Shown here in pieces: positions 36,576 through 60,749 of a DNA stretch of 64,000 nt; the stretch's first letter is position 1, and each line of letters opens with the position of its first letter. Source of the DNA: Adineta vaga (taxonomy: Eukaryota; Animalia; Rotifera); NCBI GenBank assembly GCA_021613535.1, contig CP075497.1, positions 1,054,001 to 1,118,000 of the forward strand. The letters are read 5' to 3'. A program made the translations under genes and the position numbers. The notes beneath the pieces are model-generated. The model was not told where the DNA came from. It made no database searches and saw nothing but the letters and a program-made list of their open reading frames with translations.

Positions 36576-39092
36576 TTTTTCAACAATATCAACAATTATC
36601 TTAAAGAGTTCATCGTGGCAATCATCATATCGCGGTTTTTACTCTAATTGGTAGGACACATTATTTTTTATTCAAGATGATTCATAGAAGTCAGTAAAAT
36701 AGAGAATACATCTATGATGACGACAGTAAGAGGTAACACGACACAAAGGATACATTTTACCAAGCAATTTTTGCAATAAAACTGTGAGGATATTTACGAA
36801 TATAAAATTTTTTGAGTTCATCAATAAATAACCAAAGTATGCCGAAAGCAATTGTTGGCATCACATATTTGATTGGTACAGGAGCTGTACTAAAAATTAA
36901 ATTCATTGAAGGAATTTGTGTAAAAATTAATTGAATATTTATTGAAAATAATATAGCTGCTATTCCATATAAATTTCTATTTTTTCCCCAAAAAGGATTA
37001 TGTTGAATAATTGACGCATATCTTGTTCGTGTTGAAAAGAAATTAAATATTTGAAATAAACATAATGAACAATAATAAATTGATTGTGAAACATTAATCA
37101 TTTGATTGATTTCATATGTATTATAAATTGTTTCGGGATTAACACCAAAATATTCAAAAGTAAACATAAATGAATAAAATGATATTCCATTATCAATCCA
37201 ATAATAACAAAAACAGAAAAATGCTGTAAAACATTCCAAATTACCAATAAATAGATAAGCATGAAGAAGTAATTTCAAACTAAGTAGATGATCATCTCTT
37301 CGATTTGATGGAGGTCGAGATAAGATTTCTGTTTCAGATTTTTCCCAAACCAAAGCCAATGAAATAGATACATCTAAATCAATATTATTAAATTTAAAAT
37401 TACAAAACTTTCATAAATTTTTACCATTTAATACACAAAGAATTGTTGCTAAAAATGCTGAAAGTGATAACGGAAATCCCAACCACATATTAAACATAAT
37501 AGGCCAAAATTCTGACCAAGAACCTAATAAAAATACAAATTCATTTCTTCTAAATTACATGTTGAAGAACATCTCTACCTGCAGGTAATAAAAACATGAC
37601 AACTTTTTTCAACTTATCAGCTAAAAGACGTCCTGTTTCAATAGCTGAAATAATTGATGAAAAATTATTATCGAGTAAAATCATATCACTGGCTTCTTTC
37701 GATACATTTGTACCCGATTCCATCGCAATACCAAGATCAGCATATTTTAATGAAGGAGCATCATTAGTTCCATCACCGATAACTGCGACTATTTCACCTC
37801 GTCTTTGAAATTCCATGACAATGTGCAATTTTTGTTCCAGTGATGTTCGAGCAAAGATTAATTCTTGATGAGATAAAACCCAATTCCACATGAAATCATC
37901 CATTAAATTGATCTGAGAACCCGTTATCTAATAGAATAATGATAATGAATATCAAAGAAAGATAAACAACTTACGACAATTCCATACGGAATCTTTTCTT
38001 TTTCTTTTTCTTTATAAAAAATCGATTTTGTTTCACTAAATTGATTTTTAAATGACAAATACCATCGTTTATACCATGCTGGTTTTTCTTCAAATTGATT
38101 TATTCCAATATGAACTTCATTCTGTTTTTCTTTTGTTTTATTTTCAAAATGAAATGGTGTTAATTTACCAAAATTATGTTCTTGTAATAATATTCCATTA
38201 CGATATAATCGAAAGATTGATGGATTATTTTCATGTTCTTCAATTTGAAATGTATCAATACCATTTGTTTTCGAAATATCTGTTGAAAAGACATTTGCTT
38301 GTTCACCAATAGCTATTGCTGTTGTTGGATAATCACCAGTTATCATTGCAACACGGATATGTGCATGATGAATTTTATGAATAGAATCTGGTACATCAAA
38401 TCGAAGTGAATCAAATAATGAGAAGAAACCCATAAAACAATAATTTTCGGATGGAAAACCATTTAAATCCTCGTTATGAATAATTCTAGAACGTTTGTTT
38501 TCTTCATATTGTTGCATTAATTGATTATAACGTATTTGTGTTAACTTTTGTTGACACATGGCTATAACACGATAACCACTTTGACCTAAAATGATTGATA
38601 TATAATATTTTCATAATTACATCAAATTCGTTTTCTTACATAAGATTTCTTGACGATTTAAAAGCTTCTCTTCGATTTCATTTGTTAATGACAAAATTTG
38701 ACCATCATTTGTTTTGTATGATGAACAACGTTGAATAATAATTTCAGGTGCACCTTTCATCGTAATCAAAACTGTGTTTTTGTATTTTAATAAAGATGAA
38801 TTGTTTGATTCCAATTGATTTGCTGTAATCATAAATTTATTTATTGAATTGAATGGTAAAGTTTTTAAACGTGCATTTAAACAACGTATTTCATCAATAT
38901 ACATAAAACATTGATAAACACACAGATTATAAAGAGCAATGTCAACAGGATCACCGACAACATGTAATTCCGAATCTCTTCTCGTTTTATTTCGATTATT
39001 TTGTACGAGTTGCATTTTGGCATTATTGCATAATGCAGCGCCAAGAAGTAATTCATCGAGTATTCCTATTTGAAGTGTACTTTCTTTATATA

Positions 39093-40646
39093 TGTCGTGT
39101 CGAAGTTACACTGTTTGTCGAAGTTATAACTTCGACAAAAATATTGTCGAAGTTACAACTTCGACAGACGGTATCGTCGAAGTTGTAACTTCGACAATTC
39201 TCTTCGACGAAGTTATAACTTCGACAATACGACTTATCGAAGTTTAACTTCGACAAGCAAATTTTGTCGAAGTTATTTTAAATGATTTGAAAACATCAAA
39301 CATTAAAAATCATTGTTCTTTCGTGATTAATATTAATAACTAATTTTAATCTAATAGAGATAGATAGAAATTTATTGAATTTTTTTCAAAAATGTACGAG
39401 ATATTTTCGAATAATAAAGTATGTGTTTTAAAGAATCTGAAAGTTTTTGAACTTGAATGGACAACTTTGAAAGGATTGCTCTTCTACAATTGACAAAGGT
39501 ATCAATAATGCAAACATGTATTCAATTTTACTCCTTTCATTTTTGTTCTTTTCATTTATCTGTTAATTAAATGCATTTGATCGAAATAAACTTATATCTC
39601 ATAAGCCTAATTTATAAAAGAAAGAACATATAAGACAATTAATTATCAGATTATTGGATCATATTGAATAATATCCATCTGTAAAGTATAAAGGGAAGTG
39701 AAAGATTGTTTGAGAGTTTATTTTTTGACATAAATCATCGATTCTTGTAATTATATTTTCACGAAATGACATCCACATCGATTGCATCACCTGTACAGGT
39801 AAGTAAATACAATTATTTTGAAATATGAATAAAGGACATTTATGTAGATGATCCCTGATTCATCTGCTACAGCTGATCTAAATGTGGGCGACAATGTTGT
39901 AAGTACTATTTATTCGAATAGTATTCGGTAAATAATAATCCTTTTTTTCAGTTGATTCCAGTACCGGATGTTGATCGAGGTCCAACTGATGCACGTAATA
40001 TACTTGCTGTTATTGTTGAAATAAAAGATGACAAATACAAATTAGGAGTAGAACAAGGTATCATTAATGGCTATTATAGTTTTCATCAAATATCAAAAGC
40101 ACCTGGAACACCAACTATTTTAATTGATAATGTCAATGAAGGTATTAAAATGTCTTTGAGAGAAATTGTTAAACTTCAAAGTATTACAAATGGACAAGGA
40201 GTATTAAAATGTGCATGTAAAGGTGGTTGCTCAAATGGTCGATGCAAATGTAAACAAGCTAATGTTTTATGCAATTCGCGATGTCATAATTCAATGACGT
40301 GTTCTAATAAATAGTTTAATAAATAATTTATTATATAGACTTGTCAGTTTTGTTGTGTTTGTGGATTTCTTGTACATTTTTGAAAAAAATTCAATAAATT
40401 TCTATCTATCTCTATTAGATTAAAATTAGTTATTAATATTAATCACGAAAGAACAATGATTTTTAATGTTTGATGTTTTCAAATCATTTAAAATAACTTC
40501 GACAAAATTTGCTTGTCGAAGTTAAACTTCGATAAGTCGTATTGTCGAAGTTACAACTTCGACGATACCGTCTGTCGAAGTTGTAACTTCGACAATATTT
40601 TTGTCGAAGTTATAACTTCGACAAACAGTGTAACTTCGACACGACA
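39093..40646 (+). mobile_element. Ginger2/TDD-like DNA transposon (KRBA2/SCAND3-type integrase family), internally deleted
   Basis: TGT...ACA termini; ~300-bp TIRs (39093-~39401 / ~40368-40646); TATA flanking both sides. Removing the element plus one TATA restores the ATPase frame (HS-IYK-ESTL). Internal spliced ORF VGDNV|LIPVPDVDRGPTDARNIL..GQG..KCACKGGC..RCKC..LCNSRCH. Confidence 0.85.
39766..40314 (+). pseudogene. Intron-containing transposase remnant (C-terminal SH3-like and Cys-rich part only)
   Basis: Exons joined by GTAAGT introns (~39799-39848, ~39899-39951). C-terminus typical of KRBA2-like integrases; the DDE core is absent. Confidence 0.7.
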
Positions 40647-42555
40647 TATATACTGTGATTTTCTTGATGAATTGAACTAACTGATGGTTTTCCTTTGGCT
40701 GGAAACACTTTTGAGTTTGCGTGATGAGAAATATGACGAGATACGATAGATAATCGTTGATTTGTTTGTTTTTTTTTCAATGGATTTTCTTCTTGATTTT
40801 CAAATACTTTATGTTCTCTGTCGATATCCCAGAAAATGTCAGTTACTACCATTTTATTTTTGGTCAATGTTCCCGTTTTATCCGTAGCTATGACTGAAAT
40901 CGAATTGAAACTTTCGACAATTTGTAAACTTTTTCCTAATATTTTTTGTTGACTCAGTCATTTTGCTACTATTGCTAAGGCTAAACAGAACTAATTTAAA
41001 TATTCTTTTTTTTGGATATTCAAATATTTCTTACCAAGTGTTATAGCTGATGGTAAACCAACAGGTAAGAAACTAACGATCATACCAATTGAGTTGAGAA
41101 TATTTCCGATAAGAGTAATAAAAGTTGGATGATTAAATTGCAACCAAGATAACCAAGTAATCCAAAGAACAATAATACTGAGAATATCAGCAACAATCAC
41201 AAACAAAACAAAACGATTAACTTCACGATTTAGATTAGTGATTTGATTATTCGAATTTTCTTGCGTTGTACGAGACATTTTGCCTAAAACTGTATTGTCT
41301 CCTGTGGCAATAACAATTGCTTCACCAATACCTTCTTCAATTGATGATGAATAAAATCCAAGATTAGTTGCTTCCATCAAAGTTTGATTGTTACATTCAG
41401 TTGTGACTTTGTAAGGTTTTCTTTCGCCAGTTAATTGTGCTGAATTTATCTGTATACAAAATATCAATAAAATTTACTTGAAAAGAAAAAAGAAAATTTA
41501 CTTTCAATCCTTCACAAGTTAAAAATCGACAATCAGCTGGTGTTATATCACCCATTCGTATAATAATAATATCACCTGGAACGAGATCATTAACAGGAAT
41601 ATGCTGTTCTATACCATCACGACGAACGGTAGCATCTTTTGGTGATAATTTTGCAAACGATGCTACAATCTTAATAGATTTTAGTTTTTGATACACGTTC
41701 AGAAAAGCATTACAAGCAATGACCGAAAAAAGTACAATACCAAGACTTAGATTTGTAATCGATGGATTTGACCCACCAAGTGGTTGATAAGCAACTATAG
41801 CAAGAATACCACCAGGCCAAAGAATACAATTAAAACCCATGAATAATTGTTTAAATAGTAACCAAAAATAATTCGGTGATTGAGGTGGTGTTATTCGATT
41901 CATTCCATAATGTTGTCGAGCATCATGAACAAAATTTGTTGATAGACCAGTACGTTGATTTGAATGAAAACGTTGAAAAACATTTTCTAATGAAATTATA
42001 TGAATATCTTGATCAAATCGAGACATATCAGTATTGGCCCAAAGATCAATATTTGCATGTTCTATTTCACCCATATTACCAATACTATCTCTTTTTCGTT
42101 GTTACCTATTATCTTCGTCTGGTTGATGAAATATCTTTTATTTTAAATGATAGTTAAATAAATGTTCTTATGATTCTATTTATATTTCATGATAAACAAT
42201 TTTTTTTCATTTCGAAAAAAATGTCTCATCGATTTTGATTATTAATTAGTTTTCTGATGAAAAATTTCAAAAGATTTAAATAAATATTTGGTGCGACAGC
42301 ATATAAAAAGAGACAGAGTATAAGTAATAACAACTGACAAAATCATTCTTTCAAAAATTCAAATGCATATCTAATATGACACGACAAACACAGACAAGAA
42401 TAATCATGTTTCGAATAATTCAAGTGAATATCTCGTATGATGTTAGAGAAGGCTAAATGTACTTGGAATATTTTTCGGGTGATGGTGTGATGAGAATAAA
42501 GAAGAAACACTACACACAGAAGATATTTTGTTATTATTTAATGACATGGATATAT

Positions 42556-46016: not shown

Positions 46017-47300
46017 ATTCAAATGAATGATGTATCGTAAATAAACACTTCCTTTTTATCTACCTGTAGAATATATTACATTTTCTTACTCATGTAATTA
46101 CATATAAATAAGTGTGACACATAACCCATGATATCTGAGCCCTTATTGAGGAAGTAGACGATAACATTGATTTGAAAAAAACAAACAAATAAAATATACT
46201 CTTCACATCGTTCAATATCTGTTTCATCAGATTTTATTTGATTAAATAATTGAATTAGAAATTTAAGACAAATACTGAAAATCATAAAGCTTTTTTTTTA
46301 TTGTAAATGGTAATGAATAAATCTATATATATATATATATAGAACTGATTTCTGTTTGATTACCTTCAATATGAAAAGCGAATTGATTTGCAGATAAGGG
46401 ATATTTTACATTATTACGAAAATATTTTGATATCGTTGAAAATCATATATGATTTAATAGAGCGCAGGATACTTTTGGTATTATGTTGAGATAGTCTATA
46501 CTTGGAAATTCACTCTCATAACATATAGAAAGGCTATCTGTTATTTCGAGTTGCGTAAAAACTTTTATAAAGAAGAAAGTTCAATTCAATGTACATTACA
46601 TCAAAATACTTTCATTAAACTAAAACAATGACATTGAAAGTATAGATAAAGGTTGATTGTTCATATACATATCCTCAAGATTTTCTTTTTTTGATAAACT
46701 AAGTGAGATATTTGTAGAATACATCATCTTTGTTGTGATTGTTTTAGTTTGACTAAAAAGAAGATTCAATTACTGAGAAATAAATTCATAGATTTTTCTC
46801 ATTGATTTGGATTAGACAGAAGTTTCAATTGATAATTTCTGTTAATCTCAACATGTTGACGATTTATCATTAGTTTTCTAGTATAAAATTGAATGATTCT
46901 AATATTTGACAACGTATGTGTTACACGTCATTATTACAAATACTCTGGGACAACTAAGAATTACATAGTTCAGTGATACCCACGTCTGATCGGTCTTTAC
47001 GACGCAGTTTTACATTATTTTTATGAATATAGAGAATAAACAAAGTAAAATAAATAAATCAATAAATTCTTTATGCATCTTCGAGTAATAATTCTGTTCC
47101 AGTATCATTATTCCCATCAAATATTTTGACTCACGAGATGTCGATGATGGACTTAAAATAGGTTGTGAGATTTGCCACATGTCATGCTTTGTTTCTAGAA
47201 TGCGAACTGAATGTAATTTCTTATATTTGTTCAATATATCTTCACGAATACGATGCTGAACATACAAGGGTAATATTAACAGTTGATATTCAATATATCA

Positions 47301-47366
47301 GGTATGGGTGAGGGTGTTAGTTAAAAAGAGATCGTCGCACAACTCCACACCCACACCCTCAAGATG
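47301..47366. repeat. Telomere-like inverted-repeat element (copy N)
   Basis: GGTATGGGTGAGGGTGTTAG - spacer - CCACACCCACACCCTCAAGATG. Confidence 0.8.
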
Positions 47367-47503
47367 AATTCAAGTGTGATAACAATGAACTATAAAACGC
47401 AACACACGAGATCACATTCGTGATAAAAAAAAAGAGAAAGAGAATGAGAACAGAAATAGATAATGTAATGTGTATCCATGTCTACATTATCGACACACCT
47501 TCA

Positions 47504-50500
47504 CTATTTATTTTTAGGCGTCGGCCATTGATCATCGGGAATATGGGTAGTAGTTTCTACTTCTTTTATTTTGGTTTGAGAATTTATTCTGGTCACTGTA
47601 AGTTTATAGTTAGGACTGCTTTCAGAACTTGCTGGATGTCCAAAGATTGTCTGCAGGTGCGTAGGGCCACATAAATCTGGCTCATTCTGATCATTTATTT
47701 TATTATGCAGAACTAATGTGGCTTTGTCAGCCAAAGCGTAAGTTGTGTCCTTATTTTTCGCTGAATCAGTTATGAGAACCGGTTCCTTTAAAGGGAATGT
47801 TACTTCTGCTTTAACAAATTGTGGATCTTGCGATAAGCATTGGTTTCCAATGATGTATTCCATGCCCTCTCTGAAACATTTGGTTTGATCATTTTTGTTA
47901 ACGAAATTTGTATGATTTTGTTTTTTAGCTATCTTATCATGTGACAGGTTGCCTTGTATATGGTCGTTTGGATGTCCTGCTGCGTTTGATCCATGAGGTT
48001 TAACACCTTGAGATCCATCTAACACGAATCTTTCTTCACCAAGATGATGTTTAAATCCTCCCATTATCAATGCATCTTTCTTGTACTGCTCCAATCTTTC
48101 AATATCATGAGCCTGATTAGCAAGGTTGGCCTTATTATTTTCCATTCTAATGGCTATATCATTTCTTAGTTGATTGGGATCTTTTCCTGTTTGTTGAGCA
48201 ATAACATTAAATAAACAATTGTTTTGATCACCATTTCGAATCATCGGTTCTTGACTGTCTGGCAAAGTCCAGTGACCCTGAGGATTATCGATCGTTGGTT
48301 TATGGTATTGTACTTCTATTGGATCACCACTTTTGTTCTCACCAATAATACGTATAACTTGTCCCTTGTCATCGAACACTTTAATTGATCTGCCAGTTTC
48401 ATCACTGAGTGATCCCAAGTGAGGTAGTCCAGCCTCGCCACCATCTTTTAAATCACGTACCATATCTTCTACTTTCTTTACTGCTTTTGGATCATCCGCT
48501 CCATATTTGAATTCATTTGGTATCCTATTATTTCTATCACCATCCTGAAAAAATTCTATTCTTCTTTGTGCTTGATAATTATTAATTTGAAATTGTATAT
48601 TTCTGTCTAAGTCTGCAGTTAATAATGTCATACTATGATTAATACCAACATCAGTAACTAGAACAATCAATTTACGTTGTATAATATTACAAATATGTTG
48701 CGATACATTCCTTGCTAATGCTCTGTATAAGTCATCGAAAGATTTATTTTCTCTTCCCAAATTGACTTGTTCAGGTTCTGGTACATTTTTAAGATCGATG
48801 TCTTTACTTGATGTTTCTGGAATATAAGTCGATACATAAGTTAGAGTATCTTCTTCTTTCATGCATATCCTGCGTTTTTGTTCACTTGTTGTGTGCTGTT
48901 GTTGTTGTTGTTCTAATTTCTTGTAATTTTGAGTTTCTTTTTCATCTAATTTTTCTTCTTTGTATATATTTTCGACTACTTCGTTTAATTTTTCTATGAA
49001 ATTAGGCACAAATTTATCTAACTCCTCTAAAGTTTGTTTTACTTGAACAGCTTTCAATACTGCCGATAAACCGGATATTTTCTGTGTAGCAATACCTTTA
49101 ACTATACCAATAGTTATAGTTTTTAATGCACTTTGTTGTTCAGTTGAATGGAATAATTTCATTGCTTTTTGTCTGATAAGACGTTCATAGTAATTATTTC
49201 GATTTTTTTCATCTAATTGCAGCATTTTTTTCACTTGATGATTGATTAATAAAGCATTTTGTATTGGCTTTTCAACTCGTTTCATAACTTCGTCTTGTAT
49301 AATAGGCATCAATGATTTACTTACACCATGATCAACGAGTTGTGTTATTAATTCTTTCGCTATACCTTTCGCTAAACCTGCTGCAATAGCTTTCGCTGCT
49401 AATATCCATCCTGTTTTTACTGTTGTCGTCATAACTGTACCGATGCTACTCACTCCTGCCAGTACAGTTTTTGCTACATCTAGCATTGCACCAAATCCGA
49501 CACATACAATAGCTACAGTCAAACTAATAGCTTTTTGTATTCCATATGATTTCCAATCAAAATCTCGATTGATAATGCCGCGTTGTACTATGATAATTAG
49601 ATCACTAACACCTTCAGCAATTAATGCTGTACCGATGGCACTACCTATACCGGCAGTATATACAGCAAGTGCTGCTCCAGCAACTATTTGTACAATACCA
49701 AGACTGGCAACAATAATAACTGCAGACCAATCAATCGGTTTCAATCCTTTTATTTTAAAGGATCCGAAAAATCCATTATTTCTATATTCTTCAATTTCAT
49801 CGCTATACAACGTAATATCTTGATCTCGTGGTAATAATTGTTCAATATCTAAATATTCAACTTCAATATCATAATTATCTTTTCTTGCTTGATCAATACA
49901 TCCATGTTCTTGTTCTTCATTATTAACTTCTTCTATTGTATTTCCAATTGCTAATTCAATTGTATATTTTTGTATACTAAATAAAAGCATTTTGCATCTT
50001 AATTGTTCAGATAAAGCATCAGAAATTGATGTTTGTTGAATGACATGTAACATTGGTTCTAAATTCTCTTCGATAATTTGTTTTGCTCGTTTAAAATCCT
50101 TAATTGCTGCATCAATTTTGTCTTTATTTCGCTTACAATCTTTTCCATATTCAGCAAGTAGTGCGTATCCACGATTATAATATGCATTAACTTGAAAATG
50201 TTCATCTAATTTGATTGCTTTTGTAAATTCTTCGATTGCTTCTTGATTTTTTCCTGCATCTTTTTTCTTTAAACATTCATTTCCAATTAAAACATGAAAA
50301 CATGGATTTCGAATTAAAGTATTTTCTGCATTATCTTTCAAAATTTCTTGTTCAAATTCTTTAAATTTTCGCAACATCTCGTCTTTTGTTATTGTTTTCG
50401 TTGATTCTTGCATTTTTAACCAAATACCAAATCTATCTTCAACGGCACGTAATTTTATTTTCTTTTCTTTTGTTTGTATATCATCATTTCCATTAATATT

Positions 50501-53500
50501 TGTAAGTAACTTACAAAATTCTTCAAATACTGCATCTTTAATTGTTACTTCATCTATTTGTAGTACTGCTTTACCTATTTCAATTTCTTCCTGTTCATCT
50601 CGAATTGTTTTTAAATTCAAATAATTATTTTCATCTTGTTGTAATAAAATAAATTGACCAGTGCCTTTATTTCCTGTTCTTGATGTTCGACCAACATTTT
50701 GTTGTTCAACTCGTTGATTTGGTGGTAAAAATGTAACCAAAACATGTAATCCACCATATTTTTCAATTTTATCAGCTCGAATGTCTGTTCCTCTACCAGC
50801 AATATTTGTAGCAATAATGATTTCACCCGATGTCAATTCTTCTTCGAGAATTTTCGATTCATCTCCTGTTCTATATGTTTTTATTTTTGATTGATCATAA
50901 TTCGCCTTAATCAATCGATTTTTAATTTCATCCACTTCTTGAATATATTTCGTAATTATTAATACACCTCGTCCATTTTTGAGTTTATTCATTGAACTTT
51001 CAATAATATTCTCATACCAATCATCGACATTATTCACAATAATTGGTGTTAATTCTTGATATTGTTTTTTTCTAAATGGTGGAATAATAACATTGTCTAC
51101 TTTATAAATTTCACTTAATAATTTTTGAGCAGCTTGACTACCAAGTGTACCTGTTAATCCAAAAAGATTTGAACCATATCGTCTGAAATAAGTTACATTT
51201 GAGATAAAATTCGTTGTAAAACTTTCGGCACAAATTTTAGCACCATGTTTCATCTGTAAAAATTGATGTAATCCATTACTCCAATGCATATTTGCTTGAA
51301 TAATTCCTGTATTACTTGCATCAACTGGTACAATCTTTCCATTTCTAAGAAGATAATGTTGTTGATTATGACATCGATATTTTGCATGAATTGCACTATC
51401 AATCCATTTGGTAAGTTGACATTCCAATATTAATTTTCTTAAATGTTCAGGAATTTTAATTTCAGGATATTTCTCTGGTATATTTTGATCAATATCTCGA
51501 ATTAATTTCCTTAGATGTTTTTCTGTACAATTTTTAATAAAATCTTCTTTTGATTCTTTAATTTCAACAGCTTGTGTAGCAATATCATATCTAATCTGAC
51601 CTTTATCATCAAATATATCAGGTTGTTCAATGAAATAAGTTTTACCATTAGTTTCTTCAATATATTTGGCAACTTCTCCAATCTGAATCCAAATTGCTGC
51701 TAAAAGTGGTTCTAAATTATCCATTGCCGGCATTTGAGATGATAACATCACAATATGATTTCTTTCATCAATTAACATTGAATCAACTTCATCAACAATT
51801 GCCACATCACATTTTCGACCATTTCGAGTACCTAATTTACTATATTCATCACGTAAAATATCACCTTGAAAATCACTTGCTGCACCATAAACAATATCAG
51901 CTGTATATCGTATTTTAATATCTACTAAATCTTTTCCATTATGAGATACAGTTAAATTGAATTGTTGATAAAATTCCTTTAATTGTATCGATTGTGGCTT
52001 AGCTAATTCAGGTGAACTTGTAACAACATCTACATGATGTCCATCAAGAGCTTTAATTGCAGCTAACATGGCTACAATTGTTGTTTTTCCTTCTCCAGTA
52101 TTGATTTGTACGAGACGTCCAGTTTTTTGTTCAGAATTTATCAATATCAACAGTGATAATACTTGAATTTCTCTTACAGGAAATTTGCTCGTAATTTCAA
52201 TTGCTTTCATTACAATGGCAATTTTTTCATGATGAGTAACGGAATTCGATGGTTTTTTAATGTCTTCTGTCCATTGTTGTATGTCTGATGTTGACCATTG
52301 TTGAATGCAATTAGAATTTGGATATAGAACAGATTTACCTCGATAAATACTTTGAATATTTTCATATTCTTCTGTAATTTTTTTCTCGTCAATAAATGAT
52401 ATTGTTTGATTTGGATTTAAATCTAAGATTTCTTCGATTAATTCTTGAAAGTTTTTATCATAAGAACGTTGAAATGTTTGAAATATCGCTAAATCATGTA
52501 TTTGTTCAGTTAAATCTTCTGATAAAATCGATGTTAAAATATCAATTAACATTTTTCCTTGAATATTATTATCAAATTCTTTTAAACGATATTCATAAAT
52601 TGGATCTAATGCATCAAATAAATGTTTGATATCTTCATTTGAATCAATATAATTAATTATTTGTTGTATTGATTTAAGTGTCCAACCAGAATGTAAAATT
52701 TTAATCAATTTTCCATGTAATTTCTTTATTAATTCACATTTGTTAATGTCAATTATTTGATTATTTAAATCTAAATTCTTATATAGAATTTGTTTATTTG
52801 TTGAATTGATTTCTACACAAATTTGATTTAAAATTTCTTCAATTTCATCATCAGATATTTCATTTATAAATTCCTTAACTGAATTTAATTTTCTTTTTTC
52901 AATTCCAATTAAATCTCGATCTAATATTTTCATTCGATTCTTTTCTGTACTATAAATTTCATTAATTTTCAATATATGTTTAATATTCTTCTTTAATTTA
53001 CTCTCTTGACGAAAATCAATTTCATTACCTTGAATTATTTCTGATGCTTCAATTACATACAAATATTCAGAATTATTTTTATTAATTAAATCTTCTTCTT
53101 GTGATAATAAACAAATTGATATACGTAATCCATTTTCAAATTTTTCAGTTTCATCAGTTGTTATTGGATATGTTACATGTTCATTATTTTCTAATAAATC
53201 TTTGATGAATTTTAATTCAACAGAATGATAATTGACCATTTTTCTTTGTTTATACGATTGAAATAAACTTAATACATAGATTTTCGGGAATTGTTTATGA
53301 CGAAGTTCAATAACTTGTTTTTGTGTAATAAAATTCCATTTGTCAAAATTATTAATAAATAATTTCTGTTTTTGTTTCGATAAATTTTCTGCCATAGATT
53401 TCATATTTGCAAGAGTAAATACTCCGCAATTATAATCATCAAATTGATCACATGATCGATGAAATTTGAAATTGACATTTTTTAATTGTTTAGTAAGAAT

Positions 53501-56500
53501 ATTTTGTATTTCTATTCGTTCTACAATGGAATGATGTTCACCCATCGAATCTTTGTATAATACAATATTTTCTTTCTTCTTTTCATTGTATATTAATGCT
53601 AAACTAATCCAATGATTATTCGCAATATTCAATGGAATAATCGTTGTTCGATGATCTTGTTTATATTCTTTTAAAACATCATATAGATTTCTTTCTTCTT
53701 GTTTTCCTAATGGTTGAGTAATTCGAAATTTAGTTCGATCAAATTCTTTCATCCATTCTATTAATATTATTGCTATATCTTCTGCTTTATAACAATATGT
53801 TGTTTCTGCTTGATTATATGCATTTTGTTCAATTGATGTTTTCTTTCTTCTAAAATGATAATTTTGAGTATCATGAAAATATTGTGAATAAAATGTAAAT
53901 TTCTTCGATAATAATATTTCAATTAATTGTTCATTGAATTTTAATTGTAAATTTTTTAAATTAATTTTATTTGATATTTTATTTATTAAAAAATATTCTT
54001 TACTTTCTATTGTTAAATTACAATTAAATAATTGAATAAAAAATTGAATTAATTCATCAATATTTGGATCTTCTATTAATTGAGATAAAACAAAATGAAT
54101 TATTTTTATTCTATATGGTAAATATTCATTTAATTTTCTTAATTGTTCAATATGAAATTGTTTCAATTGTTTCTTTAACCATAATTCACGTAATTTAATA
54201 AAACAAATTTGAAAATGACAATCATTCATTATAATATTCCATGCTTTGATTTCATTTAATTGAATTAACATTAATAAAACATCATTTAATATTTCAAGAT
54301 GAAATTGACATAGATTTTGTTTTTCAATTAATGATTCTAATAAATTTTCAATTGAATAAACATTTTGATCTTGTGTAAGAATAAATGTATTTAATAAATG
54401 AATATATTTACGAAAATTTTCTAATTCAAATATATCAACACCAGCAATGGAAGTTATTTCAAATGTTTTAACTAATAATTCACTACATAGAATTTCTTTT
54501 CGCCATTGTTTTCTATGAAATTTATGAAAAATATTTGTATCAATTCTTCTTCGATTGAAAACACTGTTGTTTAATGCACATAATAAACGAAATTTTTCTA
54601 AATTATTACAATCAGTAGTATTCGTATGATCCAAGGAAATAAATTCATCGATTGGTTTTAATTCATCAGGATGAACATCAAGTCGTTGTTTAAGTTTATT
54701 GTAATATGTTTGTAACCAAGTATTATCTGATGGATTTTCGTTAATAAATTTGTCTAAACTTTCAAATAGAAGTTTATTTAGGAGAAAATCTTGATTATCT
54801 TCTAATTCTAATGTACGACATTTTACTAAATCAATAATTGTTGTTTCTCGAGATATTTGAGAAGAATATTGTTGAAGTTCTTTTGATAAAATACGAGCAC
54901 AAAGAATTCTTATTTCAATACTTTCGTTTTTTTGTTCTAAAAGTTTTGCACATTTTTCTACGACTTTCATTGATATATTTTTCTTTTGTATAGCAATTTT
55001 TACTGTTGCATAAAATAAATACTTCTTTAATTTTTCATCTTTTTCTTCATCAATTAATAATAATTGTTCCCAAAGTTGTTTTATAATTTCCTCTGATAAT
55101 TCCATATTACGACTTAAACAAACAGCTAAAATTCCGATAACCATAACAGATTTGAGTAATTCGGTATGTTCAGTTATTCGATTGATATTTGTATTTGTTA
55201 GACCTTGTTTAAGATTTATTTCAAATAATATTTCACTTATCTTAGAACGTATATCATCGAAGTTCTGATCATGTTTATTTGTTAAGACATCAATTAAACA
55301 TTGAATTTGCTTCTCACTGATGCCATATCCTTCTTGAACAAGTTTTCTTAAGTTTTCTAATGCAGTTGTATTAAAATCTAAGATTTGACAGCATTCAAGT
55401 TTGTATAATTCATCCGGTAGAAAAGATTCAATCGTAGTACCATCATTTTTATATTTTAAAATTTGTATATCATGTTGATCACATTCAATTATTGAATTTT
55501 TGATCATTTTCACAATACTCTCACGAACTTCATCATGTATTGTGCGAAAAGCAACTTCTAACAGATATGGTAATTTATCAGAAAGTAAGTTTTCATTTTG
55601 TTTTACGTTAGATATTTGAATTAATAATATCAATACTTGTTTAGATGTTTCGTTAACATAAACATCGTGAGTTTGAATTCGATCTATTATCATTGGTAGA
55701 AATACTATTAAATTTTCATTTTGTGGATCTTTAATTATAAATTGAGTAATGTCATCAATGGAAATATTATGATCATGTTCAATAGATCTTCCAATTTCAA
55801 TCCAATCAATATTAAAATCATGTGGTAATATTTTAATCAATACTTTGAAGGCATCGCTTCTTAAATCGATATCATATTTAATTAATGATTGTAATATATT
55901 GATAGTATCTAATGTAGAATTTTCTTCTTCTTTGATTAAATTTTCCAAAGCAATTTTTCGTATTTCTAAATCATTCCGTGAATTTTTCAATAAATTTAAA
56001 TTTCGTGAATAATTATTGTTGTTTTCGGACATGTTGAGTCGATCAAGAATAGATTTTGAAATATCATATCCATTTTGATATTCAGCGTATAATAAATCGA
56101 AAATATCGTTACGAAAATTTGATAGATGTTGTAAAATAAATTCGTCGATATTCGGAATATTTTTCAAACTCATTTGTTTAGTCTTAACTAATGATTTACT
56201 TAACGAAATTATGTTCTTAGCTGTAGACGTGTCTAATAATGATAATTCTATGTACTCATGACATTTTTCAATGAAAAATTTTGGTAAAATCTGTATTTCT
56301 AATTCAATAATTTCGATGATCAGTTCAAGTTTTTCATTCATATGAAAATATTTCGTTAACTTTTCAAAACAATTCAATGTGAGTCGATTTTTCTTTTTAA
56401 CATATTCTAAACAATCATCAACTATACTCGAATCATCACTTAAACACTTGTTTTCTAATCGAATAGCGTCACTAATATATGCAATATCAATATCTATACA

Positions 56501-57433
56501 TTGTTGTAGAATTTTCAATGTATCATCTCTCACTTGTTTATCTTCATTTTCAATCAATATTCGATAGAAATATTTTAGTACACTTGGATATTCTCGTAAA
56601 ATCAATTTTCTACTCAGATCTTCAATTAATTTTCGTTGATCAAATGGTATTGTTGGTAATATTTCATCTAATGTTCTCTCTATATCGCTAAATTTAGACA
56701 TGTCGATGAACTTAAATATTTTTATAATAGCTAATGATACTTCTATATTTTCAGTTATTTGTCCTGCTTCTATGAGCTTTTTCAGTGCTCCTAATGAGAG
56801 TTTGTCTCGATTAGATAATTCCGCATTCTCTGCTATGTATCCAAGTAGAATAATTAAATCATTGATATTAATCATTTTACTAGCTTCTACTTTTCTAGTA
56901 CAATAGTCTAGTTCATATAGAACATCATCGAGTTCATAAATGATATCCATAGCTTTATCACAATCGACTGTACTATTTAATTCGTATTCTAATTGAATTC
57001 TCGTATTGTTCAAAGTGTTCTGTTTATTAGTATCTTCGAACTGTTTGAGTAGAATATCTAAGTTGTTGAATGATAACAAATCTGGAATTAATTTTCTTAT
57101 ATTAGTCAACCATGTTAATCGATCATTTAGTGCAAGACCTAACTCATTCGCCACTTGAATATTTCTACTATCGGTACGTAATGTCTCATCGATTTCATCA
57201 ATCTTCTCTATGTATCGATCATTTTCTTTACGAAAGAATTTCTTCATTTCCTCTTGGATACTTTTCTCAAACGCTTGTCCTCTCTCCTTCAAAATTACAA
57301 ACAAATCGATGACGATATCTCTCAAATCAATTTTATCCTGGTCTCGCGGTGAAAAATTCTTATTTTCTAACGTAGCACTTAACTTCATTAATTGTTTATC
57401 TTGGAGTTTATATGCCTCGTCCTTATCAATCAC
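47504..57433 (-). CDS. Giant SecA-like ATPase polyprotein (helical repeats, Ulp1/C48 peptidase, SecA DEAD, TPR, hydrophobic segment, OTU-like, C-terminal toxin-like domain)
   Basis: 3309-aa uninterrupted ORF. SecA motifs QINTGEGKTT, DEVDSMLID, GLHQFLQMKH, GLTGTLG, ATNIAGRGTDI, GGLHV, RVEQQNVGRTSRTG. C48 motifs NNHWISL..KDSMG..QFDDYNCG. Confidence 0.9.
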   Translation of the reverse strand: MIDKDEAYKLQDKQLMKLSATLENKNFSPRDQDKIDLRDIVIDLFVILKERGQAFEKSIQEEMKKFFRKENDRYIEKIDEIDETLRTDSRNIQVANELGLALNDRLTWLTNIRKLIPDLLSFNNLDILLKQFEDTNKQNTLNNTRIQLEYELNSTVDCDKAMDIIYELDDVLYELDYCTRKVEASKMININDLIILLGYIAENAELSNRDKLSLGALKKLIEAGQITENIEVSLAIIKIFKFIDMSKFSDIERTLDEILPTIPFDQRKLIEDLSRKLILREYPSVLKYFYRILIENEDKQVRDDTLKILQQCIDIDIAYISDAIRLENKCLSDDSSIVDDCLEYVKKKNRLTLNCFEKLTKYFHMNEKLELIIEIIELEIQILPKFFIEKCHEYIELSLLDTSTAKNIISLSKSLVKTKQMSLKNIPNIDEFILQHLSNFRNDIFDLLYAEYQNGYDISKSILDRLNMSENNNNYSRNLNLLKNSRNDLEIRKIALENLIKEEENSTLDTINILQSLIKYDIDLRSDAFKVLIKILPHDFNIDWIEIGRSIEHDHNISIDDITQFIIKDPQNENLIVFLPMIIDRIQTHDVYVNETSKQVLILLIQISNVKQNENLLSDKLPYLLEVAFRTIHDEVRESIVKMIKNSIIECDQHDIQILKYKNDGTTIESFLPDELYKLECCQILDFNTTALENLRKLVQEGYGISEKQIQCLIDVLTNKHDQNFDDIRSKISEILFEINLKQGLTNTNINRITEHTELLKSVMVIGILAVCLSRNMELSEEIIKQLWEQLLLIDEEKDEKLKKYLFYATVKIAIQKKNISMKVVEKCAKLLEQKNESIEIRILCARILSKELQQYSSQISRETTIIDLVKCRTLELEDNQDFLLNKLLFESLDKFINENPSDNTWLQTYYNKLKQRLDVHPDELKPIDEFISLDHTNTTDCNNLEKFRLLCALNNSVFNRRRIDTNIFHKFHRKQWRKEILCSELLVKTFEITSIAGVDIFELENFRKYIHLLNTFILTQDQNVYSIENLLESLIEKQNLCQFHLEILNDVLLMLIQLNEIKAWNIIMNDCHFQICFIKLRELWLKKQLKQFHIEQLRKLNEYLPYRIKIIHFVLSQLIEDPNIDELIQFFIQLFNCNLTIESKEYFLINKISNKINLKNLQLKFNEQLIEILLSKKFTFYSQYFHDTQNYHFRRKKTSIEQNAYNQAETTYCYKAEDIAIILIEWMKEFDRTKFRITQPLGKQEERNLYDVLKEYKQDHRTTIIPLNIANNHWISLALIYNEKKKENIVLYKDSMGEHHSIVERIEIQNILTKQLKNVNFKFHRSCDQFDDYNCGVFTLANMKSMAENLSKQKQKLFINNFDKWNFITQKQVIELRHKQFPKIYVLSLFQSYKQRKMVNYHSVELKFIKDLLENNEHVTYPITTDETEKFENGLRISICLLSQEEDLINKNNSEYLYVIEASEIIQGNEIDFRQESKLKKNIKHILKINEIYSTEKNRMKILDRDLIGIEKRKLNSVKEFINEISDDEIEEILNQICVEINSTNKQILYKNLDLNNQIIDINKCELIKKLHGKLIKILHSGWTLKSIQQIINYIDSNEDIKHLFDALDPIYEYRLKEFDNNIQGKMLIDILTSILSEDLTEQIHDLAIFQTFQRSYDKNFQELIEEILDLNPNQTISFIDEKKITEEYENIQSIYRGKSVLYPNSNCIQQWSTSDIQQWTEDIKKPSNSVTHHEKIAIVMKAIEITSKFPVREIQVLSLLILINSEQKTGRLVQINTGEGKTTIVAMLAAIKALDGHHVDVVTSSPELAKPQSIQLKEFYQQFNLTVSHNGKDLVDIKIRYTADIVYGAASDFQGDILRDEYSKLGTRNGRKCDVAIVDEVDSMLIDERNHIVMLSSQMPAMDNLEPLLAAIWIQIGEVAKYIEETNGKTYFIEQPDIFDDKGQIRYDIATQAVEIKESKEDFIKNCTEKHLRKLIRDIDQNIPEKYPEIKIPEHLRKLILECQLTKWIDSAIHAKYRCHNQQHYLLRNGKIVPVDASNTGIIQANMHWSNGLHQFLQMKHGAKICAESFTTNFISNVTYFRRYGSNLFGLTGTLGSQAAQKLLSEIYKVDNVIIPPFRKKQYQELTPIIVNNVDDWYENIIESSMNKLKNGRGVLIITKYIQEVDEIKNRLIKANYDQSKIKTYRTGDESKILEEELTSGEIIIATNIAGRGTDIRADKIEKYGGLHVLVTFLPPNQRVEQQNVGRTSRTGNKGTGQFILLQQDENNYLNLKTIRDEQEEIEIGKAVLQIDEVTIKDAVFEEFCKLLTNINGNDDIQTKEKKIKLRAVEDRFGIWLKMQESTKTITKDEMLRKFKEFEQEILKDNAENTLIRNPCFHVLIGNECLKKKDAGKNQEAIEEFTKAIKLDEHFQVNAYYNRGYALLAEYGKDCKRNKDKIDAAIKDFKRAKQIIEENLEPMLHVIQQTSISDALSEQLRCKMLLFSIQKYTIELAIGNTIEEVNNEEQEHGCIDQARKDNYDIEVEYLDIEQLLPRDQDITLYSDEIEEYRNNGFFGSFKIKGLKPIDWSAVIIVASLGIVQIVAGAALAVYTAGIGSAIGTALIAEGVSDLIIIVQRGIINRDFDWKSYGIQKAISLTVAIVCVGFGAMLDVAKTVLAGVSSIGTVMTTTVKTGWILAAKAIAAGLAKGIAKELITQLVDHGVSKSLMPIIQDEVMKRVEKPIQNALLINHQVKKMLQLDEKNRNNYYERLIRQKAMKLFHSTEQQSALKTITIGIVKGIATQKISGLSAVLKAVQVKQTLEELDKFVPNFIEKLNEVVENIYKEEKLDEKETQNYKKLEQQQQQHTTSEQKRRICMKEEDTLTYVSTYIPETSSKDIDLKNVPEPEQVNLGRENKSFDDLYRALARNVSQHICNIIQRKLIVLVTDVGINHSMTLLTADLDRNIQFQINNYQAQRRIEFFQDGDRNNRIPNEFKYGADDPKAVKKVEDMVRDLKDGGEAGLPHLGSLSDETGRSIKVFDDKGQVIRIIGENKSGDPIEVQYHKPTIDNPQGHWTLPDSQEPMIRNGDQNNCLFNVIAQQTGKDPNQLRNDIAIRMENNKANLANQAHDIERLEQYKKDALIMGGFKHHLGEERFVLDGSQGVKPHGSNAAGHPNDHIQGNLSHDKIAKKQNHTNFVNKNDQTKCFREGMEYIIGNQCLSQDPQFVKAEVTFPLKEPVLITDSAKNKDTTYALADKATLVLHNKINDQNEPDLCGPTHLQTIFGHPASSESSPNYKLTVTRINSQTKIKEVETTTHIPDDQWPTPKNK

Positions 57434-58128
57434 TCTCGCAAAGCTGACAGAATTTTCTGTAACGCAGGCTTCAGACGAAATTTGAAATCATCACTTAGTC
57501 CTATCTCTACTATCAGTCTATCGAAATTGTTCGTAACACTAGAAGCAGTACAAAATTTCATCTTTTGGAATCGTTTTGCGCACAGCTTTTTACTTTTACA
57601 AACATTCTTTAATATCATCAAGTTCGCAAATGCTATAGAAATATCGCTACCACTCACCAAATATCCTTCTTTCTGATTATGCTCAACGAAATCAATTTCT
57701 GAATTTGTACCCAATGTTGCTGTAATCTTTTCTTTAAATCTCTGTTTTTCCGAGTCATATTCTGTTGTATCCAATGAATCCTTCATGAATATTGTAATCT
57801 TTCCATTCTCTGGTACTAAACCGAATGTGAACCAATGTTCTTTATGATTGCGAATAAATGTGTCTTTTTGTTTTTTAATTTCACATATGGCAAACAGACC
57901 AGCTGGACTCTTCTTAATGTATTCTTTGATTTTACTGTCGATATCGGAGCAACTATCAAGTATGTATTTCTTAATACTATTTTGCAACGAAACAGCATTG
58001 AATGTATGATCAGTGATATAAAGAATTTGAAATCGAGCTCCTTCAAATTGCTGTGTATTAGTTAACGAAACATCGGATGGTACTGATTGTGTGGATGCTG
58101 ACGAACGATCTCGTCCACTGTTCGACAT
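57430..58128 (-). CDS. 232-aa ORF with a degenerate Ulp1/C48-like domain; probably the N-terminus of the SecA-like gene (frameshifted)
   Basis: ATG start. HWFTFGLV..IFMKDSL..Q..FANL parallels HWISLALI..LYKDSMG..Q..LANM in the giant ORF but lacks the catalytic Cys. Its TGA overlaps the GTG of the next ORF. Confidence 0.7.
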   Translation of the reverse strand: MSNSGRDRSSASTQSVPSDVSLTNTQQFEGARFQILYITDHTFNAVSLQNSIKKYILDSCSDIDSKIKEYIKKSPAGLFAICEIKKQKDTFIRNHKEHWFTFGLVPENGKITIFMKDSLDTTEYDSEKQRFKEKITATLGTNSEIDFVEHNQKEGYLVSGSDISIAFANLMILKNVCKSKKLCAKRFQKMKFCTASSVTNNFDRLIVEIGLSDDFKFRLKPALQKILSALRE

Positions 58129-59375
58129 AAAGTATGATACGATCAGATAATTATTTTGTTAAAATTAAAGATCTTCGTTAATCGATGTGAACTATATAGA
58201 ACATATTATTGATTCTTCAAGAAAGTCTAGAGTAAAAAATGTATGAAAGATACTCGGGAAATGTTCGCTTTAGTTGAATGACAGTATTTAGCTTATTCAA
58301 AAAGAACAGGTCTAAATTATGGGAATTCTTTTAAGGAGCAGACCTCATACAATTACAATTAGTACACAAACGAGAAACAGACAAAAAATCGCTAAGAAAA
58401 TTGTAAAAAAGTGTTACATACTCGACTCACGTCGGTTTTTGTTTATGTTGTGTGTCAAAAAAAAACAATAAGTAAATCTAGAATAAAAAAATCTTTGAAT
58501 TCATTTTCTAGTGCCTTCTATATATTCAATACAATAGATCGAAACAATGATTAATTATTATTACAAAAAATTTCAAATTATCATCATTCATATTTGTGGC
58601 ATTTCATTGAGCAATAGTCAAACACCGATTGCTAGAATAATTGACTGATGCAATCCGATCTAATTTGTTTTACAACTTCATCTTTTACGGCTGTTTTGTA
58701 CGTTCTTCTACTGGAAATTCCAATAAAAGATAATTAATTTGAATACCCGATTCTAAATGAAATACTTGCGAAAGTTCGTTATTACAAAGCAACGTAAAGA
58801 ATAATCGAACATGATGTAGATTGTCCCAATCTGCTCTTATTGCCATCAAACACCTTGCTTCCTGATTTGTATGCCCAAAAAGTAATCGTTCAAGATGGTT
58901 TTGTCTAAGATATACAGTGATGCTGAGCGACGAAGGAAGTTTGTGATGATTAATGTTTTTTTCCAGTTTGTCAGATTTTCTCACTGATAAATAGCGTATC
59001 CAGTTGTTTCACTGTATTACAGAGATAACACCTAGAAACATTTGGATTGGGAAAATATATTGTTGCAGCTGACGATTTCTTGCTTCAATGAGCCAATAAT
59101 GGATCGACGACGCAGTCATTTGCGTATCTGGATAAGTGAACTTCATTCTTCCATTCAATTCACTTGGACGCTGCGCTACAGGAGATTTTACTTTACATGC
59201 AGAATACAAAAATAGAGCTGAGTACAAAAAAACGGACAATCAAAAACTTGAAAAACAATTAAATACAACAAAAAAGAAAACAACACATTGATCAGTTTAA
59301 CAATAGAAAATAAAATAGAACTAAACAATCAGCACTACTAAGAATACTACTGCGATTTGTCTATTTTCCGTTCTC

Positions 59376-60749
59376 TTACTTCAGTTGCATGATACGATTC
59401 TTTTCCGTTTCCTTTTCCAATCGAATCAAATTTCGCTCTTTATAATCAGGAGACCACGTATCGTTCATTATCATTTCCATTGCTTCGTCGAAAGTATTAG
59501 TTTTATCTGGAAAGCGATCTCTCGCGAAGTCTATTGCCTGTTCCGCTTCCGTATACGCTTTATTTTTTATGAATGCATCTATCACCAATACGAATGAATT
59601 GTGAATAACATCTAGAATCTTCTTCGAAGCAGCAGCCTGGAACTTTTCAGCTGCTTCTTGATATTTTCCAAGTGCTTCTTCTATTTTATAAATTGCTTCT
59701 TTTGCTCTTCCTTTTTTAAATAATCTTAATCCTTTTTTATTTAACTCTAGAGCGTCTTTTTCTGCTCTTTGTTCTTTTGTGGTCTTTTGTTCAGCGGGTC
59801 TCAGCGCTACGACTCTCTGTTCCGTGACTCTCTGCTGTTCGGCGGCTCTCCGAGCTTCTGCGACTTTCACTGCTGCCATTCTTCGTCTTGGTTTCGCTGC
59901 AACTGTTTGCTCCTTACTACTATCCACGCTACTACTATTTCTTCGTCTTGGTTCTACTGCAACCACCTCCTCCTCGCTACTACTATTTCTTCGTCTTGGT
60001 TTTACTGCAACCACCTCCTCCTCGCTACTACTATTTCTTCGTCTTGGTTCTACTGCAACCACCTCCTCCTCGCTACTACTATTTCTTCGTCTTGGTTCTA
60101 CTGCAACCACCTCCTCCTCGCTACTACTATTTCTTCGTCTTGGTTTTACTACAACCGCCTCCTCCTCGCTACTACTATTTCTTCGTCTTGGTTCTACTGC
60201 AACCACCTCCTCCCCGCTACTACTATTTCTTCGTCTTGGTTTTACTGCAACCGCCTCCTCCTCGCTACTACTATTTCTTCGTCTTGGTTTTACTGCAACC
60301 ACCTCGTCCTCGCTGATATCCTCGCTAATATCCTCGCTAATATCCGCGCTGCTATCCTCGCTACTACTGTTTTTTCTTTGGTTTTTATCGCTACTATCGG
60401 TGGTAGTTTGCTTGTCGATAGTCTTGTCGGATTCCTTGTCGCTAGAGCTTGTGCATTGGCAGCGCTTACAAGTTAGATGGGCAGTATGGTCTGGAAGACA
60501 AGAATCGATAATTGGACTACATTTGCCACATTGGGAACAAAGAGTGCAACTGCGGTCCCCATCTGATAAGAATGACCTACGCACGTTTTCATAGGTGGTG
60601 CCGTAGTTCCCACCAATACCTGACGTTCGTGATGTTGCTAGCCCATAGGTAGAAGCAACTATGGTTATAGGATTTGACGAGTTGGTAAGCGGCGTTCGAT
60701 CATGCGCACTCGTGGTTTCGAAAGTATGGAATCCACTGTTCATCTTCAT
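59376..60749 (-). CDS. 457-aa protein: Cys/His cluster, 16-aa tandem repeats, C-terminal TPR-like helices
   Basis: Single ATG-stop ORF. CTLCSQCGKC..C..H..H..CKRCQC; (PRRRNSSSEEEVVAVE/K)n; ALELNKKGLRLFKKGRAKEAIYKIEEAL is TPR-like. Confidence 0.7.
   Translation of the reverse strand: MKMNSGFHTFETTSAHDRTPLTNSSNPITIVASTYGLATSRTSGIGGNYGTTYENVRRSFLSDGDRSCTLCSQCGKCSPIIDSCLPDHTAHLTCKRCQCTSSSDKESDKTIDKQTTTDSSDKNQRKNSSSEDSSADISEDISEDISEDEVVAVKPRRRNSSSEEEAVAVKPRRRNSSSGEEVVAVEPRRRNSSSEEEAVVVKPRRRNSSSEEEVVAVEPRRRNSSSEEEVVAVEPRRRNSSSEEEVVAVKPRRRNSSSEEEVVAVEPRRRNSSSVDSSKEQTVAAKPRRRMAAVKVAEARRAAEQQRVTEQRVVALRPAEQKTTKEQRAEKDALELNKKGLRLFKKGRAKEAIYKIEEALGKYQEAAEKFQAAASKKILDVIHNSFVLVIDAFIKNKAYTEAEQAIDFARDRFPDKTNTFDEAMEMIMNDTWSPDYKERNLIRLEKETEKNRIMQLK
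59881..60313. repeat. Coding 48-bp tandem repeat, ~8 copies plus one variant
   Basis: Unit CTTCGTCTTGGTT(C/T)TACTGCAACC(A/G)CCTCCTCCTCGCTACTACTATTT. Confidence 0.95.

Follow-up and report, generated by a model that had tools for sequence, protein, structure and literature searches.

A permuted OTU-like domain, a conserved Gly-Gly joint and a predicted toxin-nuclease tail in a giant SecA-like gene of Adineta vaga

The giant gene and its locus

The window, i.e. the whole 64,000-nt stretch of A. vaga DNA under analysis, carries on its minus strand an ORF of 3309 aa (47504..57433) with a GTG start and without an internal stop. Residues are numbered from this GTG, and all the domains and motifs described below lie on the minus strand. 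The closest named homologue was A. vaga I4U23_027593, identical over aa 2940-3160. The order of the encoded domains was determined to be: CE-clan protease, SecA-like motor, TPR, hydrophobic segment, His-before-Cys OTU-like domain, L-x-x-G-G motif, and tail.

The CE-clan (RickCE/Ulp1-like) protease (aa 1264-1350, 53384..53644) matched PF22179 with an E-value of 2.8e-8 and retains its His, Asp and Cys motifs. The SecA-like ATPase (aa 1711-2254, 50672..52303) matched SecA_DEAD, SecA_PP_bind and P-loop_SecA, and its TGEGKT, DEVD and GRTSR motifs are intact. This domain, with 118 bits inside a 3309-aa protein, differs from the housekeeping SecA, which is about 900 aa long and covers the full SecA_DEAD model; in a Rickettsiaceae genome the true SecA is encoded separately by a 920-aa frame (431 bits). 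A TPR-like repeat (aa 2392-2426, 50156..50260) scored under the Pfam cut-off. The Gly/Ala-rich hydrophobic segment (aa 2566-2660, 49454..49738) is likely membrane-inserting, and a comparable hydrophobic peak was found 476-588 aa ahead of the GG in 49 of the 52 long members of the family.

An upstream ORF of 232 aa with a degenerate CE-like domain (57430..58128, minus strand) belongs to this gene in relatives, where it makes up the N-terminal part. It matched the protein of locus L001 (E 2e-8), and the relatives P0007, P0008 and P0018 extend without interruption through the counterparts of both ORFs. No hydrophobic signal peptide was apparent in this ORF when read by eye. In the assembly it is out of frame with the main ORF, the break being near 57,436-57,445. 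Since contigs from 2 public runs of separate studies give a different sequence at this site, the break is likely an assembly error or an allele. The GTGA overlap of the two ORFs was also considered as a bacterial translational coupling and was ruled out, as relatives run through both ORFs.

The 5' leader contains a 230-nt GT..AG intron (58192..58421, minus strand), the ends of which were checked. It was retained in the DNA-like run X8 and skipped in a single low-depth contig of run X11 (depth 5.8), which suggests that the gene is transcribed and spliced. The coding region itself is intronless. The neighbouring genes, encoding a P-type ATPase, VIT-vWA, LRR and GPCR proteins, are intron-broken animal genes, and the contig of one run (46500-50562) joins the 3' flank to the giant gene. 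A dispersed repeat at 47346-47369, directly downstream, matched several other sites and many loose contig ends. Within the P-type ATPase gene, short repeats with CRSYNFD-like units (39086-39277 and 40492-40776) flank a CXC-type ORF (39922-40314) and may represent transposon ends.

The gene upstream of the giant gene (59376..60749, minus strand) is TPR-like in its C-terminal part and resembles the TPR gene which precedes the giant gene in a Rickettsiaceae genome (31% identity over 116 aa with the TPR ORF of L002, E 2e-9). TPR-like ORFs are situated before the giant gene in L001, L002 and L015 (L001:3-875; L002:77-1564). Due to this resemblance, the two genes may have been transferred together as a unit, and the TPR-like protein could possibly be a chaperone or an antidote. 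The rotifer TPR-like gene also contains a tandem PRRRNSSSEEE-type repeat.

The permuted OTU-like domain, the Gly-Gly joint and the tails

An earlier note on this DNA had placed a circularly permuted OTU protease, followed by a ubiquitin-like Gly-Gly terminus, at 48050-48460. All of its motifs were found there, on the minus strand of the 3309-aa ORF. The domain spans approximately aa 2974-3119 (48077..48514) and contains GEAGLPHLG (aa 2999-3007, 48413-48439), IKVF (aa 3017-3020), IEVQY (aa 3039-3043), GHW (aa 3053-3055, 48269-48277) with His3054 (48272-48274) and Trp3055, GDQNNCLF (aa 3068-3075, 48209-48232) with Cys3073 (48215-48217), and LRNDIA (aa 3089-3094). The His half lies ahead of the Cys half, as had been claimed, His3054 preceding Cys3073 by 19 residues. 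The OTU-type Cys motif was retained only in part: N-x-C-L-F is conserved, whereas the GD of GDQNNC varies across the family, and thus the likeness to GDGNC is partly a matter of chance.

The AF2 model of aa 2940-3309 was built from 12 sequences and was confident only over residues 31-178 or so (pLDDT 63-89). In the structural comparison foreseen in the earlier note, Foldseek with the two-domain model yielded no match at E <= 0.001. The VIA search of 48,161 chains ranked the permuted EschOTU (6W9S) first, with Z 6.4, which falls below the tool's caution mark of 8, an rmsd of 4.9, 117 aligned residues and 13% identity. Model residues 35-180 were aligned with residues 192-346 of the EschOTU chain, the end, aa 3119, falling on EschOTU residue 346. 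CE-clan (His-before-Cys, ubiquitin-like) proteases were next in the ranking (Z 5.0), and canonical OTUs aligned with the His half only (Z 2.8-3.7). A profile search of the PDB sequences with the protein gave no real match. The window's own domain did not match Pfam OTU (PF02338), and 21 of 62 relatives did so at E <= 0.1 (best 3.8e-6), two of them above the cut-off; profile positions 5-62 or 55-128, i.e. the Cys half and the His half, were covered separately. The top rank of EschOTU, the alignment of canonical OTUs with one half and the matches of relatives in halves support the proposed permutation.

A profile of 19 close domains retrieved 210 cluster representatives at E <= 0.001, and the family counts refer to the 150 listed. 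Among the matches listed, the catalytic Cys and His were conserved in 91% and 89% of the aligned domains, respectively. The His was situated 13-32 residues ahead of the Cys in 130 pattern matches among the relatives listed, in a search which presupposes the His-before-Cys order; in the alignment this order was present in 150 of 178 domains among the matches listed. All 150 intact domains among the matches listed have an aromatic residue directly after the His. Such a gatekeeper residue has been shown to limit cleavage to substrates with Gly at P2 (PMC7391069). The usual third catalytic residue, Asp or Asn at His+2, was detected in just 4 of the 150 and Thr in 103, among the matches listed; because of the near absence of Asp/Asn the domain was classed as OTU-like, not as a canonical OTU deubiquitinase. 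The Trp of the OTU WGG motif was not among the common residues of the intact domains compared. The assignment as a permuted, OTU-like domain is supported, with moderate backing from the predicted structure. In the relatives P0037, P0038, P0041, P0052, P0067 and P0077 a second OTU-like domain, mostly degenerate, was found behind the first GG; that of P0041 is inserted within an RNase-type tail.

The domain is followed by ALIMGG (aa 3121-3126, 48056-48073), of which L-I-M-G-G (aa 3122-3126, 48056-48070) forms the family boundary and the predicted cleavage site. The GG (aa 3125-3126), one of just three GG pairs in the whole 3309-aa protein, lies 52 residues past Cys3073 and about 27 past LRNDIA. 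Among the listed relatives with a His..Cys pattern whose chain continues for 70 aa or more past the Cys, 112 of 117 contain GG 45-61 residues after the Cys, compared with 14% of random 32-aa windows. In the alignment of the matches listed, leaving aside P0002, P0099 and the rows too short to include the site, 126 of the 133 domains whose His/Cys pair is intact contained GG, compared with 3 of the 15 domains lacking the pair, 5 of these 15 being weak second matches inside tails. With first copies only, the corresponding values among the matches listed were 126/132 and 3/10 (Fisher p 9e-7, kinship uncorrected). The 7 first copies in which both the dyad and GG are lost lie at 6 places of the tree; most of these double losses are on long branches, and therefore general decay may explain part of the association. 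Among the matches listed, 7 intact domains are devoid of GG, four of them reading GA, GA, AG and GV, and one Cys-to-Asn domain retains it. GG was also kept where the CE protease is Cys-to-Ser (P0008, P0012) and in short hymenopteran proteins without a CE or SecA match.

Leu was found at P5 in 101 of 124 sites among the matches listed, resulting in the motif L-x-x-G-G. The ubiquitin-like terminus seen in the earlier note thus holds for the GG and not for the ubiquitin sequence L-R-G-G. Positions P1, P2 and P5 are fixed, with free variation at P3 and P4, a pattern resembling that of a cleavage site. In 257 close pairs with different tails the P5 Leu was always shared (identity 1.0), several positions of the helix ahead of the GG reached 0.95-1.0, and the identity dropped to 0.03-0.13 starting one residue past the GG (0.10 at that first residue). 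The GG is accordingly conserved at the domain boundary, as anticipated, with the sequence conservation ending one residue past it.

The tails of at least 40 aa, 124 among the matches listed, fell into 39 BLAST clusters, the largest of which (64 of 124) includes the tail of the window (aa 3127-3309, 47507..48055). Pfam gave no match with the window's tail. The AF2 model of this tail, built from 50 sequences, had a pLDDT of 90 and matched the CdiA toxin 5e3e both in Foldseek (E 4.3e-4, probability 1.00) and in VIA (Z 9.2, rmsd 3.1, 109 aligned residues), where the next row had Z 4.1. In the tail alignment, conservation is 90% or higher for His3154, His3158 and Thr3262, and Pro3267 is conserved too, so that the tail has the N-terminal His pair and the C-terminal Thr expected of CdiA-CT Ykris RNase A-like toxins. 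It is predicted, on the basis of the model, to be an RNase A-type (CdiA-CT Y. kristensenii-like) toxin nuclease. Tails of other members matched Endonuclea_NS_2, a DNA/RNA non-specific endonuclease (P0018, E 3e-8; P0069, E 1e-9; P0095, weakly), an AHH nuclease (P0164, E 2e-9) and, below the cut-off, a barnase-like RNase (P0014, E 0.002); some others presumably carry ParB-like or nucleotidyltransferase-like motifs. Stub tails of 31-32 aa (P0012, P0013, P0024) were considered as truncations. This was rejected on the evidence of locus L012, where the stub probably represents the first part of an intron that precedes the nuclease exon. In this rotifer-like contig (L012:2755-3565, also L013) a probable intron with GT-AG ends, about 800 nt long, lies just past the GG, inside the nuclease tail, and since it interrupts the tail, gene callers report just a 32-aa stub.

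Distribution of the family and exchange of tails

Thirty representatives were looked up by name, and 15 clusters carry an organism name. The family was found in Rickettsiales, Amoebophilaceae, rotifers, a fluke, nematodes, wasps, an ant, an ostracod and a slime mould; the named clusters include Rotaria, Opisthorchis, Panagrolaimus, Cyprideis, Heterostelium, the wasps and the ant, Rickettsia, an Amoebophilaceae and a Bacteroidota genome. Many intact paralogues are present across Adineta, Rotaria and Didymodactylos. No relatives were found in the viral contigs, plasmids and phages searched. The wasp and ant proteins (P0062, P0075, P0079, the P0087 cluster, P0124) combine the permuted OTU, the GG and an RNase A-type tail, mostly in 300-500 aa; SecA was not matched in those scanned, and they are possibly a domesticated family, parasitoids included.

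One Rickettsiaceae genome has two copies with the OTU-like domain. One of them extends in L014 among bacterial genes (DUF805 and AAA-PDDEXK neighbours), and its OTU-like domain is 65% identical to that of the window and followed by a different tail. The DUF805 membrane protein gene after this copy (L014:1064-1531) is a candidate immunity gene. A second genome of the same order has two distant copies, both with His..Cys..GG, and the G354 loci likewise provide a bacterial context for the family. The close profile matched 2 of 400 scored genomes of the order of the Rickettsiaceae genome, which is a lower bound, because the larger search found Rickettsia proteins. Several spotted-fever-group Rickettsia (P0091 cluster) encode a family member of 2228 aa under the annotation SecA, which is complete in certain strains and fragmented in others. 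The SecA tree groups the Rickettsiaceae copy with the bdelloid copies in one unresolved clade, and places one Rotaria protein elsewhere, among bacterial rows. The trees are quick and unrooted, with many open forks and no AU test. Judging from these sequence relationships, the giant gene was likely acquired by animals from endosymbionts.

Two Adineta steineri proteins (P0010/P0018) are 96-100% identical up to about 500 aa ahead of the GG, then 61-74% identical, and end in unrelated tails. P0013 and P0025 share 95% of the protease domain and have different tails. The window's gene is itself mosaic, since compared with P0003 its protease domain is 66% identical, the flanks 83-98% and the tail 86%. 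A constant body, exchangeable C-terminal toxin domains and a fixed boundary are the features of a polymorphic toxin system, and by sequence comparison the family appears to act like one. The locus in the animal departs from the classical form: neither a cognate immunity gene nor an orphan tail cassette was found within the window.

Predicted self-cleavage, rival explanations and known systems

It is probable that the permuted OTU-like protease cuts its own chain after the GG and thereby frees the predicted RNase tail from a giant toxin whose source was likely intracellular bacteria. The release by self-cleavage proposed in the earlier note gains footing from the nature of the tail, a variable toxin-type domain which starts right after the GG, and the dozens of different tails at the same joint in relatives argue that the protease likely cuts its toxin free. 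The permutation would put the C-terminal helix of the domain where the ubiquitin-binding helical arm of EschOTU lies, and the 6-7 residues past aa 3119 would run into the active site, as the tail of ubiquitin does. The ubiquitin tail, LRLRGG, is of about the same length as this stretch up to the GG. The arm comprises C338 and I341 of EschOTU, with E343 binding Ub R74 (PMC7396840), and the VIA alignment ends (aa 3119) in this region (C338, I341, E343). The AF2 model does not place the GG in the active site; its helix extends to residue 185, directly ahead of the GG, at pLDDT < 50. The complex prediction of the protease domain with the GG-tail, run without alignments, scored 0.00, a value which speaks neither for nor against docking.

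The domain could instead be an ordinary deubiquitinase acting on a host ubiquitin or ubiquitin-like protein, with the GG serving only to cap the structure or as a joint for recombination, and the tail working while still attached. EschOTU and the permuted EmcB family have been shown to be deubiquitinases (PMC7396840, PMC12501173), the gatekeeper aromatic is present, some intact domains have no GG, and a fixed crossover site would likewise yield a sharp boundary. However, the tail swaps often break far upstream of the GG, by about 500 aa in P0010/P0018, and the GG is nevertheless invariant, so it is not needed as a crossover point. The loss of GG together with the His/Cys dyad and the cleavage-site-like pattern of fixed P1, P2 and P5 and free P3/P4 also speak against this explanation, which is considered rather unlikely. 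Deubiquitinase activity and self-cleavage are mutually compatible and not exclusive.

CE proteases cleave after GG, and the cut could be made by another protease, either the CE-clan domain of the same protein, judged intact by pattern both in the window's protein and in 16 of the 44 long members, or a host deubiquitinase. In contrast, GG persists with a dead CE domain in two cases and in short proteins without a CE match, making the CE domain an unlikely cutter; no ubiquitin fold precedes the GG for recognition by a host enzyme, and the GG tracks the adjacent dyad. This possibility is regarded as very improbable. Nearly as improbable is that the rotifer genes are passengers without a role in the animal, either recent insertions or endosymbiont contamination of the assembly. 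In the SecA tree the closest labelled bacterial relatives mingle with bdelloid copies, the coding region is intronless, and the reading frame of the window's copy is interrupted near the 5' end. Yet this break is read differently by two other runs, intron-containing animal genes flank the giant gene, and the contig 46500-50562 spans the gene and its 3' flank. The leader intron is skipped in one contig, a likely intron lies inside the nuclease tail of a rotifer-like relative, and intact paralogues are numerous in Adineta, Rotaria and Didymodactylos.

Beyond self-cleavage itself, a wider scenario is proposed tentatively, with somewhat less than an even chance. Animals would run their own polymorphic toxin system on a SecA-powered, self-delivering chassis from Rickettsiales-type endosymbionts; the permuted OTU would treat its own chain as a ubiquitin tail, the permutation enabling the cis cleavage, and bdelloids would re-arm the system via recombination of paralogues. 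As speculation, the SecA-like motor and the hydrophobic segment could, ahead of cleavage, bring the C-terminal portion onto a membrane or through it, and the rotifer might keep varied tails against intracellular parasites and pathogens or for killing its own infected cells. There is an insect precedent for bacterial toxins being domesticated in immunity (PMC10120054), and bdelloids use foreign genes against a fungal pathogen (PMC11258130). The main text of the latter paper does not mention SecA or OTU, and SecA and PF07517 are absent from 12 of its 16 supplement files.

The L-x-x-G-G motif provides a putative processing site for a large unannotated family now labelled 'preprotein translocase SecA', a label covering members in Rickettsia, rotifers, fluke, nematodes and slime mould. 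The results point to toxin-tail shuffling, a bacterial conflict strategy, appearing to continue inside animal genomes. They also locate bacterial toxin domains of the RNase A type in the genomes of invertebrates; in the earlier survey, as far as described in PMC7297114, the two invertebrate matches to RNase A-like toxins were suspected bacterial contamination.

In the mostly open literature searched, neither this architecture (SecA-like / permuted OTU / GG / variable tail) nor its occurrence across animals was found described. The permuted OTUs of known activity, EschOTU of E. albertii (6W9S) and the EmcB/CoxDUB family, are deubiquitinases (PMC7396840, PMC12501173) and share with the rotifer domain the His-before-Cys OTU fold and the aromatic residue after the His. 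As described there, they are stand-alone effectors cutting ubiquitin, whereas the rotifer domain precedes an in-chain GG and a variable toxin tail; unlike them, it has neither the Asn/Asp at His+2 nor the Trp of WGG, and the identity is 13%. The advantage of the OTU permutation is called unclear in PMC12501173. Tox-PLOTU, the OTU-type releasing peptidases of polymorphic toxins predicted in 2012 (Zhang et al., PMC3482391), are similar in being predicted to free a toxin domain and in occurring in large endosymbiont proteins (Amoebophilus, Wolbachia) with some eukaryote copies. As described, they differ in having no permutation, GG site, SecA-like chassis in this order or tail exchange in animal genomes. 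In the same source SecA-like domains are variable C-terminal domains of Amoebophilus effectors. The SecA-domain proteins of the phage WO eukaryotic association module, compared here by description, are also SecA-like giants in a Rickettsiales context with eukaryote homologues closer than bacterial ones, their SecA being described just as a secretion domain type (PMC5062602).

The window's tail shares with CdiA-CT of Y. kristensenii (5E3E) the fold, the two N-terminal His, the Thr and a Tyr/Phe before the conserved Pro; Tyr278 is often Phe (Batot et al.). His3154, His3158 and Thr3262 agree with H170/H175 and T276 of the known toxin (PMC5435912, PMC7297114). The tail differs in its 6-10% identity, HxxxH instead of HxxxxH, a C-terminal extension and its animal encoding, and unlike in CdiA systems, no immunity gene was seen downstream of it. 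The Rhs/CdiA class of polymorphic toxins (PMC3482391) is likewise built of a constant body, a short invariant motif and exchangeable nuclease tails. It differs in its chassis and peptidase, and in the rotifer the diversity is kept in paralogues. The short motif is DPxG in Rhs and VENN in CdiA.
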